From Catajapyx aquilonaris (lineage: Eukaryota): a stretch of DNA of 57,085 bases. Made by a program: the position numbers and the translations under genes. The notes below the pieces were generated by a model, which was not told where the DNA came from, did not search any database, and saw only the letters and a list, made by a program, of their open reading frames with translations. Positions 46,801 to 55,330 of this stretch are shown here, piece by piece. Position 1 is the stretch's first letter, and the number at the start of each line of letters is the position of its first letter. Location of the stretch: NCBI GenBank assembly GCA_000934665.2, contig JYFJ02002463.1, positions 1 to 57,085 of the forward strand, written 5' to 3'.

Positions 46801-47636
46801 TCAAGCCAAATTTGGCACGGATGAGCTTCTTGAGGTTACCAATGCTCACAGCCGCTGGACATCTTAAGTACCTCCGAAGAGATTCCTAAAAGTAGAAACA
46901 ATGAGCAAACCCTGACTATCATGATCACAAACAAATATACTTTTGCTTCTTCCTCCTCCTTGGTAAGGACTGAGCTTTCCTTCTTCCTGTTCCACACATA
47001 GTCCAATGAAAGGCTAATGGATTCATCAGGGGAATAGATGAAATGCAGATGGGGAGTTTCACCTCCGTCTTCACTGTTAACGGGGTTGGCATCCTTGCGA
47101 GACTTGTAGAAATCACGCCTCTTCTGCATCTCACCTGAAAAGATTTGTGAAAATGGGAGAATAACATGGCTCGACATAACATACTACCCCATTGAGAGGA
47201 GTATAAATGGGATGTGCAAAAATTACAAGAAAAAAAATACGCATAAAATAATCAAATGAAAACATATTTAGCACTTACTGTGGAACAACCCGGGCACCAA
47301 CTTGTACACAACATCTTGAAGGGTTTGATCAGATCTGATATTTAACAATGGTTTGGTCTTGTGGACCTGGACATCACAGATTGGACAGTATTTGCTGGTT
47401 TCCAAGTACTTAATTATGCATGCCCTACAAACTGCAGGAGAACAATCACATTCAATTATCATTGTAAAAATTAATTATTCATTTTTCACTCTGTAGGCTA
47501 CTACTCAAGCCTCCAAGTACTTACATGAGTGCAGACATTCAATTATGGTGGTTGCATCAATGAAATATCCTCCACAGAGTACACATATTAAGTGGGGATT
47601 TAGTTCCGTGATTTTGATCTTGGTGGTTTGGTGCAT
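43898..47636 (-). CDS. BMI1: Polycomb PRC1 RING protein BMI1/Posterior sex combs with long C-terminal tail
   Basis: Exons 47636-47525, 47431-47279, 47134-46941, 46885-46706, 46363-43898. [44 protein letters not shown]...[76 protein letters not shown]. Confidence 0.94.
45785..45916 (-). repeat. Coding 33-bp (11-aa) tandem repeat [11 protein letters not shown] x4
   Basis: Read directly from the translation of the last BMI1/Psc exon; the fourth copy is [11 protein letters not shown]. Confidence 0.9.
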
Positions 47637-47726
47637 AATACCTGTAGGCTCCCTGCACTGTAACATGTATGTAACAAATAATTAGACATTAAGTAAAGAA
47701 ACTCATGTGTCAGTTAAGTCAAATAT

Positions 47727-48266
47727 GGGTCATTCCAGCTCAACTGAGTCAAGGTGTTGCTCGACCATCTCCCGATTTTTCTGAAAAAAAATCACGGTTG
47801 TACATACCCTAGACCTAATGTGAAATATCACATTTCAGCCCTATTGCGCAACACTGGTGGGAGTGGTGCCCTCCAAAAATTTGGCCCGGGCCGGAAATCA
47901 GCCCTTTTGTGGCGAATTATTTCGGTATGAGACCCTCATCCAAACCCATCAAACATAATCAAAAGAAAGAGGAAGATGAGGAGAATGCAGCTATGGAAAT
48001 GGTTTCACTGACAAATTCAACCAGAAAAAAACGTGCCTAGCTTTACATTGGTCAAATTTTGGGTTTGGACGAGGGCCTCATACCGAAATAATTCGCCAAA
48101 AAAGGGCTGATTTCCAACCGGGCCCAAATTTTGGAGCACCCCCTCCCACCAGCATTGCGCACTAGAGTTGAAATTTGATGTTTCGCATTAGGGCATGTCC
48201 AACCACGATTGTCTTCAGAAAAATCGGAGATGGTCGAGCAACACTTCGACTAAGTTGAGCTGGAAT
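47727..48266. mobile_element. Non-autonomous DNA transposon with about 220-bp TIRs in BMI1 5' intron
   Basis: GGGTCATTCCAGCTCAACT..GTGTTGCTCGACCATCTCC...GGCGAATTATTTCGGTATGAG..CCAAACCCA is mirrored by TGGGTTTGG..CTCATACCGAAATAATTCGCC...GGAGATGGTCGAGCAACAC..AGTTGAGCTGGAAT. The right tip looks deleted. The ATAT|GGG start is Sola-like, unverified. Confidence 0.85.
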
Positions 48267-48968
48267 ATGTCATGACACCCTTGCACACACATCAGTAAAA
48301 CTACACTCTAGTCAGTGAGGGGTTACTCACTTAGGGTAGTCGTGTGGACATGTCTGGAATTCATCCAAGGATCAGAAAGTGAACCCCCAATTAGAGTCTC
48401 AAAAATTGGATGCATTCTTTTCAGTAAAATATGTAACAAATCATTCCATCAAACAGCTCAAAAAACCCACCATAATAAAATTTCAACTTGTACCATGACT
48501 CCTACCAGAATGGTACTTGACACAAATGCTAATTTGTAGATGCTGCAGCAACTAAAGGTGTTCTCCACATTGTTTCCCTCTAATCATAACTACAACTACT
48601 CCACACACAATTCCAGAGCTTTCCAGATACGGTCGAGTTGACTATCCAAACCAAACAGTGCCTAAATATTTGAAAAGATAGATAATACAGATGTCAGGAG
48701 GAAATGGGAATGAAAAAGTGGCAGGTAACAGGAAATGGAAGTGTATTGTAGCTTGCAAATCCCGTTTATTAACATGTCAATAGCTACATCCATACCAGTG
48801 TTTGTCTCTGTGACTGACAGACAAAACTCCCAAGAATGACAAGAAAAAAACTACCATTAGGAATGGGACCTGCATAAATATGATACCCAAACAGCAAAAT
48901 GGTAAACCTGTTTAGGTCCTAATGTACGATACGCAACACAGGTAACTTAAACATACAATAATCGAGTA

Positions 48969-53400: not shown

Positions 53401-53877
53401 CCCATCATTGTCGCTATCGATGAGATCAAAAATGTGCCTCTTGATCCGCCCCATCATGGACCAGGTGGACTGCATCATGTCCGTTACCGTCTTGGCCCGT
53501 GCCAGCCATGCCAGTGCAATCGGGTACAACTGCATCATACACCGCACCACCATCTTCTGTACCATCACAGACGGATCGTTCATAAGCAACTGCAAGTTTG
53601 CCACTAACTTGGGTAGGATCTCGTTGTCCTTCCGGCAGGCTTCCTGGATGAACCCCACCATAAAGACACGCACGTCTGCATTGTTGTCGCTTTGGAAGGA
53701 GAGGATCTCATCCAGAAAGTTGTCGAGGAGACTCGTATCCTTGTTCAGCACAATGTCCTGTACCCTGGTCAGGTACCTGATTTTGTTGCTTTCTGAGCTG
53801 GTCGTCCCAATCAGATTGATAAGCTCCACCACACGGTCGTTATATGACACTTGACCTTCGTCTTCTGTTTGGTCCAT
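50497..53877 (-). CDS. SYMPK: Symplekin (cleavage/polyadenylation scaffold), intronless CDS
   Basis: Single uninterrupted ORF of about 1126 aa from accATGg at 53877 (alternative ATG at 53904). [113 protein letters not shown]. Confidence 0.96.
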   Translation of the reverse strand: [1126 protein letters not shown]

Positions 53878-53939
53878 GGTTGTGGCGGAGGGCTCCTGTA
53901 ACATGCTGAATTTGTTCCTGTGGTCCAGCAGCTCCACCG

Positions 53940-55330
53940 TCAGCGAATCGCGCCTCAGGTCACCAGGCCTAGTGGAACGCAGCCATCACAGTAAATCCCG
54001 AAAACATGGTTGACACTTTGCTTTTTAGTAATTCCAAATATTGTTACCCAAATTGAATAAGTAGGATCAACAACTTGTTCTGGATTCAGTCAGATTCACA
54101 AGCTTGTAAGAAACCGCCCTCTCACCACACTTTTCGGCAGCGACTTATGCCCCACTGGCTCGAGCTGCAAAGCTATCAACGCTAGCGAGTGAATGGGGTG
54201 TCACTTCACTGCATAAAAGCGCTGCAAGAAGACATAATTTATCATTAGCTTGTGAACGCACCTTAAGGCCAGGTTGCACCACTCGCGATATATCAAAAGC
54301 TGCCTCGCCATCCATTGTTATCGTTACCAACTATCATTGCTGCTTTTGATACACCAGCAGCGTCGCAACCAGGCCCAAGTGTCACAGTTAGGCTAGAAAG
54401 CAGCATTGCCGTGCTGATGGCTTGCGCTCACTCTTTTCGTGGTACGTACGAACTATTCCCTGCAAAACGTACAAAACCATCTGCGTTCCAGCAACGCCGT
54501 TCCTTCCCCCTCCATTGTTTACTACTTAAAAACATGACAGTCCAACAACACCCATCAGCTGTCACCCCACCAACATCACCACTACTTACTTTACGTTTCT
54601 CAGAAGCGGGCCACATGTTGTAACATTGTGCTGGAAGGGACAAAGTCACGAATTAGCTCCCATCGTGGGCGGGGAAAAAACGTACAGAAAACTAGTGTTA
54701 GGACCAGGATGGAACAGGAAAGAAGAAGAAAAAAAATTGAGTGAGTGAGTGAGTGGGGGAGAGTGGTAGGGCGGGGGTGGGAGGGGAGTGGAATGAAACT
54801 GCCCTCTGGCGGGCCCCCACTTGTGCTTTCAGGCCCCGATTAATGCCCCCGCACCTTTGGATCTGCCCTTCCCAGACTGACGGTGTCTGCCTGACATGGG
54901 GGCACGGCCTGGGATGTGTGGGGAACTTGGCCAAGACGTCACACTATCTATGTGTGGGTCGGGGGGAGGGGGATGCACACACACAATAAATACCTTTTCA
55001 GCTCGGCTTGAAAACCATCATGGCCGACCGAATGTGGGGTTGCCAGACGCACGGGGAAATGCCCAAGCGGGAATGGAACAAAACGGGAAAAAAGAGTCTC
55101 TCTCCCGACAGGACGGGGCCTCTGGAGGGGATGGGCACAAGCGTGACGGGGCTGGCGTCGGGCCAGGTGGATGCCCGTTATAAATTATGCGGGTTGTTGC
55201 GCATCGGGAGAGAGCGGGAATTATTCGCCTGCACACCTTTTTATTTGGAACAACAGGAGACAATTAAAGATGGCGGATGGAACGGGAGGCGCGCGGTTCT
55301 TTCGGAGAGGGACGTTCACAGGTAGGCCAA
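53940..55330 (-). promoter_or_regulatory. CpG/GC-rich promoter and 5'-leader region upstream of Symplekin (possibly shared with BMI1)
   Basis: High CpG density, GGGCGGGG boxes, TGACG/GACGTCA, AAGATGGCGG at 55267, minus-strand donor-like AA|GTAAGT near 54589. Resembles the EAF upstream region (21100-21850). Confidence 0.5.

Follow-up and report, generated by a model that had tools for sequence, protein, structure and literature searches.

The 57,085-nucleotide contig JYFJ02002463.1 of the Catajapyx aquilonaris assembly GCA_000934665.2 (the whole stretch analysed, below called the window) carries a Symplekin gene and, next to it on the same strand, a gene of the BMI1/Psc type, and the question that this locus raises is whether the two genes are transcribed from one promoter or from two. 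The original prediction was that Symplekin may be nested in, or bicistronic with, the BMI1/Psc transcription unit, with one promoter at about 54-55 kb that could yield both mRNAs. The analysis presented here leads to a different view: the two genes are probably ordinary minus-strand neighbours, each with a promoter of its own, the promoter of BMI1 being CpG-poor and located in the spacer between them. In what follows, gene identities, exon structure, motif positions and base composition are results of the analysis, and all transcription starts, splices in the 5′ untranslated regions (5′UTRs) and polyadenylation (poly(A)) sites are predictions.

The identities that had been assigned to the two genes were borne out, by Pfam domains and by alignment of the BMI1 N-terminus with human BMI1. 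The Symplekin coding sequence (50497-53877, minus strand) forms just one exon, which has 1126 codons and a stop codon, with an ATG at 53877 and a TAA at 50499-50497, within a frame that is uninterrupted from stop to stop (53985-50497). A second in-frame ATG is present nine codons further 5′, at 53904, within an acceptor-like CATGTTACAG sequence. The product matches SYMPK_PTA1_N (1.2e-52, 179 bits) and Symplekin_C (1.4e-73, 247 bits), both far above the cut-off of 25 bits, which places it in the Symplekin/Pta1 family. In a protein database search, the closest symplekins were those of cockroach, termite and damselfly (61% identity, 96-99% coverage; for Periplaneta, 61% identity at 99% coverage) in a collection that does not include the source species itself.

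The BMI1/Psc-type PCGF gene (43898-47636, minus strand) has coding exons at 47636-47525, 47431-47279, 47134-46941, 46885-46706 and 46363-43898, and, when joined, these five exons stay in open frame (213 + 821 codons). Residues 1-37, counted from the ATG at 47636-47634, are collinear with residues 1-37 of human BMI1 (E 3e-20), and the scores of PCGF1, PCGF5 and PCGF6 against the same N-terminus are much weaker. Among the exon frames, Pfam detects RAWUL (8.7e-19); RING is present but, on its single exon, stays under the Pfam cut-off. By these tests the gene appears to encode a BMI1/PCGF4 Psc-type subunit of Polycomb repressive complex 1 (PRC1), an assignment that, by alignment and domain content, does not separate PCGF4 from PCGF2. 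The two genes (43.9-53.9 kb) thus have the same-strand adjacency of a conjoined pair. The 821 residues of the last BMI1 exon (43898-46363, minus strand) are of low complexity, with Lys/Glu-rich repeats followed by a Pro/Ser-rich tail; there is no Pfam match in this exon, and the tail far exceeds that of vertebrate BMI1 in length.

The spacer from the Symplekin stop to the BMI1 leader (47642-50496, minus strand) comprises 2855 bases, and one reason for preferring separate promoters is that a tandem spacing of 2.86 kb has room for one. It had been described as mostly miniature inverted-repeat transposable elements (MITEs), which overstates their share, since its three inverted-repeat elements cover 1206 of the 2855 bases (42%). 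Two of them, of 327 bp (48967-49293) and 344 bp (49773-50116), have the structure of MITEs, with TA flanks and terminal inverted repeats of 21 nt in the former and 18 nt (perfect) in the latter, and the frames of the spacer give no Pfam match above cut-off. The third is a foldback element (47732-48266) with arms of about 218 nt that are 83% identical. As RNA, it would form a hairpin of about 230 bp (-329 kcal/mol, z -24), which leaves 96 nt between its end and the BMI1 ATG downstream. Rfam gave only sub-threshold matches (the weak MIR8562-like one in the foldback scored 46 bits, where the gathering score is 211), and no further copies of the three elements were found elsewhere in the 57-kb window.

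The case for a shared transcript had been built on a chain of minus-strand splice signals past the Symplekin stop. Every motif of this chain is in its place: a donor AG/GTATGG (the slash marks the exon border) with an exon end at 50457, 40 nt past the stop; an acceptor ttacag/ with an exon start at 50356; a GTAAGT after 50294, which delimits a 63-nt candidate exon; a GTGAGT after 48331; and, before the BMI1 ATG, a ctacag/ at 47642-47647, after which an exon would begin at 47641. The frequency of such motifs, however, is no more than chance. There are 58 GTRAGT sequences in the window versus 54.3 +/- 7.1 in shuffled sequences, or about 0.5 per kb per strand, and, since this is the shuffled rate, the two copies on the minus strand of the spacer (about 1.45 expected) are what one should find.

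The acceptors were scored by counting pyrimidines at positions -20 to -5, out of 16. Nine reference acceptors, four from BMI1 and five from the dynactin gene of the window, have 10-13, a range that is partly circular since the dynactin sites were picked as the best-looking frame-compatible ones. The 150 AG dinucleotides on the minus strand of the spacer, which serve as background, have a mean of 7.95. On this scale the cited BMI1 acceptor has 6 pyrimidines and that of the post-stop exon has 9. The acceptor-like ttacag that had been noticed near the Symplekin start is indeed located 18 nt upstream of the ATG, as part of CATGTTACAG at 53896-53905 (minus strand), but with 8 of 16 pyrimidines its tract is weak and close to background. 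The chance level of the donor-like hexamers and the weakness of the acceptors cited for a shared transcript both speak for separate promoters. A species-specific splice matrix was tried and dropped: the dynactin homologue is 30% identical, the GT-AG pairs are ambiguous and the donors are degenerate (GTAAAT, GTCAGT, GTTTGG, GTCAGG).

The claim that a non-coding exon lies upstream of the BMI1 ATG fared better than the acceptor on which it was based, which, as stated above, is weak. A better acceptor candidate, CATGTTACAG at 47658-47667 (minus strand), is found 16 nt upstream of the cited ctacag; it has 10 of 16 pyrimidines, which is within the range of the reference acceptors, and would start an exon at 47657, 21 nt before the ATG. 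Three ATGs are present within 95 nt before the start codon, one of which starts an overlapping out-of-frame reading frame. Since a mature 5′UTR with the foldback hairpin and these upstream ATGs would translate poorly, a 5′UTR intron ending at 47658 (or 47642) is sensible. In human BMI1, the ATG is in exon 2 and exon 1 is non-coding, according to the part of the source consulted (PMC12638823). We consider a non-coding upstream exon of BMI1, and with it the predicted 5′UTR intron, to be reasonably supported; the hairpin, the three upstream ATGs and the human precedent all fit with it and with a BMI1 promoter in the spacer.

A candidate for such a promoter can be pointed to. Outside repeats, CpG density in the spacer rises in one region only, 50200-50399 (5 CpG in 200 bp, observed-to-expected ratio (o/e) 0.82), which houses, within 60 nt, the DNA replication-related element (DRE)-like TATCGATG at 50220-50227 and the cAMP response element (CRE)-like TGACGTC at 50274-50280. 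Both motifs had been listed as counter-evidence to a shared promoter, and both were found where they had been placed. One of the two TATCGATG copies lies elsewhere, within the 344-bp element (at 50035). Since the CRE-like and DRE-like motifs both fall within this sole CpG rise, the segment 50213-50293 (minus strand), which also includes the GTAAGT at 50293-50288, could be an independent BMI1 promoter; it would overlap the Symplekin 3′UTR.

How far that 3′UTR may extend depends on the poly(A) signals. As had been reported, AATAAA hexamers are present at about 49137, inside the 327-bp inverted-repeat element, and at about 48765; on the minus strand of the spacer they occupy 49142-49137 and 48770-48765, and there is no other A[AT]TAAA there. 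The former is thus the first AATAAA past the Symplekin stop, and the latter, the second canonical one, is 1727 nt past it. The absence of A[AT]TAAA on the minus strand for 1355 nt past the stop was counted in favour of coupling. Yet with 74 such hexamers on the minus strand per 57 kb, simple arithmetic puts the chance of finding none in 1355 nt at about 0.17. The first A[AT]TAAA of BMI1 itself is 1049 nt past the BMI1 stop, and long 3′UTRs may therefore be normal at this locus, so that the 1355 nt of Symplekin are not special. The proposal that Symplekin, as a 3′-processing factor, sets PRC1 output through use of its own poly(A) site found no support.

Several observations weigh against a separate BMI1 promoter in the spacer. 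The window as a whole is CpG-depleted (o/e 0.45), with a few CpG-dense stretches, and those coincide with or lie beside the 5′ regions of the kinase, the zinc-finger/CHGN pair, dynactin and Symplekin, as located by scanning open frames with Pfam; the majority of the other gene 5′ regions in the window are thus in or beside a CpG-dense stretch. The stretch nearest to EAF, at a distance of about 1.6 kb, is of uncertain assignment. Of the 19 copies of the YY1-core word GCCATNTT in the window, 8 are within four CpG-dense 5′ regions and none is in the spacer. The earlier statement that the spacer is without the CpG/YY1-type signature of the other promoters thus holds: it contains no CpG-dense stretch, and of its 45 CpGs, 19 are in the foldback element, which also harbours its densest 200-bp window (7 CpG). 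This maximum, inside a repeat, compares with 12-15 CpG per 200 bp at 55.0-55.4 kb. The latter region is part of a CpG-dense domain (53400-55400, minus strand; peak at 55000-55399, 27 CpG in 400 bp) that is presumed to be the Symplekin promoter region and contains a YY1-like AAGATGGCG at 55267-55275. The share of the spacer occupied by inverted repeats and the consequences of poly(A) site use point the same way: if Symplekin used the AATAAA at 49142 or at 48770, just 1.1-1.5 kb would be left for a BMI1 promoter. Finally, the sign of base skew is linked to the direction of transcription. The plus-strand skews of the spacer (TA -0.087, GC -0.108) have the sign of stretches read on the minus strand; the divergent intergenic region at 22.3-25.2 kb has skews of about 0, and the sign is reversed in a plus-strand intron of dynactin. 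This small sample is modest evidence, and it suggests that much of the spacer may be transcribed on the minus strand. A sigma-70 promoter/terminator scan was set aside as inapplicable to a eukaryote.

On the present evidence, the two genes form an ordinary tandem pair with a single firmly established peculiarity, the absence of any coding intron from Symplekin. Segment structure was inspected for 14 of 75 metagenome loci that encode Symplekin relatives, and in genomic contigs (L023, L026, L027, L030, L059, L062) these consist of 9-13 coding segments with recurrent break points. Symplekin of the window has none of the breaks of its relatives, i.e., all coding introns have been lost, as expected of a retrogene, and this was counted in favour of coupling. 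Loss of introns at the original locus through a cDNA would account for their absence equally well. The Symplekin of the window is missing RRSTAAQ, an N-terminal motif that 8 of the 23 arthropod homologues in the alignment have, including those of cockroach, termite, damselfly, stick insect and mayfly and the closest homologues; an intronless gene without RRSTAAQ fits either a 5′-truncated retrocopy or cDNA-mediated intron loss. A poly(A) remnant, a hallmark of retroposition, was not seen in the spacer (no 20-nt window with at least 14 A), and no direct repeat longer than 10 nt that could be a target-site duplication flanks Symplekin (two shared 10-mers versus 2.2 expected). Three other metagenome loci (L006, L007 and L009) are compact contigs with uninterrupted Symplekin frames at 49% identity, and in each of them a further long frame on the same strand (540-583 codons) begins within about 170-190 bp; at least one other eukaryote with a compact genome thus has a Symplekin gene without introns.

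The starts of the two genes resemble each other. Upstream of each ATG is an identical 10-mer, CATGTTACAG, and each frame opens with ATGnACCAAAC (53858-53910 and 47615-47675, minus strand). In a gapped alignment, the two leaders rank in the top 0-0.1% when compared with about 3800 segments of the window; with the TTACAG and ATG anchors fixed and the rest shuffled, p is 0.03-0.05. The word ATGTTACA occurs 5 times versus 3.3 expected. The duplicated-looking leader is a lead rather than a result.

In a rival view, BMI1 would have its first exon or exons at a shared CpG-island promoter at 54.6-55.3 kb, with the intronless Symplekin nested in BMI1 intron 1, perhaps as an orphan retrogene on the promoter of its host. 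An upstream exon would then be spliced either to the Symplekin acceptor, in a transcript terminating at the poly(A) site of Symplekin, or, skipping it, to the BMI1 acceptor. The view accounts for a single CpG-dense domain with a YY1 motif serving two genes, for one Symplekin exon where genomic relatives have 9-13 segments, for the missing RRSTAAQ, for the leader shared by both genes, and for the skews of the spacer; the hairpin and upstream ATGs ahead of BMI1, by arguing for a 5′UTR intron, fit with it as well. Well-formed candidate 5′ exons and donors are available upstream, e.g., a 41-nt non-coding exon at 54590-54630 (minus strand) with an acceptor of 12/16 pyrimidines and a donor AAA/GTAAGT, which could be a shared or a Symplekin 5′ exon. 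The 694 nt from this donor to the ATG-proximal acceptor of Symplekin contain 15 ATGs (13.8 expected by composition), which makes one long 5′UTR unlikely. Retrocopies in host introns that use upstream host exons are, moreover, a documented mechanism in the part of the literature source at hand (PMC4772013). Against this stand the near-background Symplekin acceptor, the modest significance of the leader similarity once its anchors are fixed, the lack of a poly(A) remnant and of flanking repeats, and the failure to find synteny or a fused model in relatives. In addition, the CpG-dense domain overlaps the coding sequence of Symplekin, which would be expected if Symplekin had its own start nearby, and tandem genes rarely share a promoter a priori. 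We regard the shared promoter as doubtful, though possible. Its more specific form is decidedly unlikely: Symplekin as an orphan retrogene in intron 1 of BMI1/Psc, with a single CpG-island promoter and common 5′ exon(s) giving rise to both proteins. Belonging to that form, and just as unlikely, are a choice between the terminal Symplekin exon, with its weak poly(A) site, and a skip to BMI1 exon 2, and an origin of the similar leaders as a relic of the Symplekin exon having captured the start of the second BMI1 exon.

The remaining explanations dispense with a nested gene. BMI1 could start in the approximately 90 nt between the foldback and the ATG, or in the proximal arm of the foldback, with no 5′UTR intron and with acceptors that occur by chance. 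The poverty of the cited acceptor is in accord with such a start, as is the concentration of spacer CpGs in the foldback, and transposable elements are able to donate promoters; we nevertheless consider it very unlikely, given the three ATGs in the 95 nt upstream, one of them opening an overlapping frame, the acceptor at 47658, which is within the accepted range, and the non-coding exon 1 of human BMI1 described in the available text of PMC12638823. Read-through as the main route, with a splice from 50457 or 50294 to the BMI1 acceptor and with BMI1 translated as the second cistron, can draw on donor and acceptor motifs that do exist, on the stretch without A[AT]TAAA past the Symplekin stop, and on human COMMD3-BMI1, where BMI1 is reachable from its upstream neighbour. 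The motifs, though, are at chance frequency, the acceptor of the post-stop exon is mediocre, the hexamer-free gap is not unusual and reinitiation past a frame of 1126 codons is very inefficient, all of which renders this route highly improbable. Trans-splicing of a spliced leader (SL) at both ATG-proximal acceptors, resolving a polycistronic precursor, would make use of the acceptor-like CATGTTACAG 18 and 21 nt before the Symplekin and BMI1 ATGs, respectively. Its probability is next to negligible: Symplekin is closest to insect sequences, no leader gene was seen (no search aimed at one was made), and the sections of PMC7986045 at hand describe insects as lacking SL trans-splicing and copepods and amphipods as having it, with operons unreported there.

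Comparison with relatives and with known systems adds the following. No BMI1-like sequence was found in the 75 metagenome loci with Symplekin relatives, about 14 of which have at least 3 kb downstream; since these loci are mostly short, partial or possibly transcripts, this synteny negative is weak. Neither RING nor RAWUL was present in any of eight longer Symplekin-containing proteins, a blank that likewise counts as weak. The literature search returned no description of a Symplekin/BMI1 arrangement, either of symplekin as a retrogene or of symplekin with Posterior sex combs.

One close parallel is human COMMD3-BMI1, where BMI1 is also downstream of an unrelated same-strand neighbour and has its ATG behind a non-coding exon 1 (PMC12638823, in the part available). 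There, failed termination of the upstream gene gives rise to transcripts that reach BMI1, as described in the portions consulted of PMC12638823 and PMC6862657, and a PDB chain of BMI1 (8grm_M) is labelled "COMMD3 protein". The human case differs in that BMI1 has a separate promoter; here, the neighbour is Symplekin and the 2.86-kb spacer carries three inverted-repeat elements. Retrocopies in host introns, such as mouse Taf9 in Ak6, are expressed via upstream exons of the host (PMC4772013, in the excerpt seen). Host-intron retrocopies and orphan retrogenes resemble the locus in having an intronless coding sequence that precedes, on the same strand, the main part of a gene with many exons, one CpG-dense promoter domain upstream and an acceptor-like site just before the ATG, and differ from it in that neither a poly(A) remnant nor a target-site duplication is found here. 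Insect dicistronic genes and SL-resolved operons share with the present locus two reading frames on one strand at short spacing. Typical intercistronic distances are, however, far shorter than the 2.86 kb of the spacer. The absence of SL trans-splicing from insects, as given in the accessible part of PMC7986045, is a further difference.

Some other features of the window were recorded. The stretch at 12700-13800, flanked by a zinc-finger gene on the minus strand and a CHGN-type glycosyltransferase gene on the plus strand, is CpG-dense, has three YY1-core words and resembles a bidirectional promoter. The segment 31400-32600, which lies inside the dynactin p150 gene, is CpG-enriched (o/e up to 0.89), with one TGACGTC and one CACGTG, and could be an internal alternative promoter of that gene. 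C/G homopolymer tracts are found at 55.8-56.1 kb, and at about 56800-56840 there is a short interstitial repeat of the arthropod telomere type, TTAGG on the plus strand, amid other simple repeats; this repeat and the insect sequences closest to Symplekin both indicate an arthropod.

Returning to two neighbouring genes with separate promoters, the locus may be pictured as follows. The CpG-dense domain at 53.4-55.4 kb would drive Symplekin, whose ancestral coding introns were presumably all lost through retroposition or cDNA-mediated intron loss and whose 3′UTR probably covers over 1.3 kb of the spacer. The most likely start of BMI1/Psc would be at a CpG-poor spacer promoter, for which the CRE/DRE-like cluster near 50.2 kb is the best candidate. 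A short non-coding exon 1 would be spliced to an acceptor 5-21 nt before the BMI1 ATG, thereby removing the foldback hairpin and the upstream ATGs, and some read-through from Symplekin into BMI1 may arise as a by-product. Should the doubtful shared promoter prove true, a single transcription unit would yield either an essential cleavage/polyadenylation scaffold or a Polycomb PRC1 subunit, and 3′-end processing capacity would be coupled to Polycomb dosage, an echo of the human COMMD3-BMI1 read-through. If Symplekin were in fact a nested retrogene, the abundance of the 3′-end-processing scaffold could directly influence how much of a PRC1 core subunit is made.

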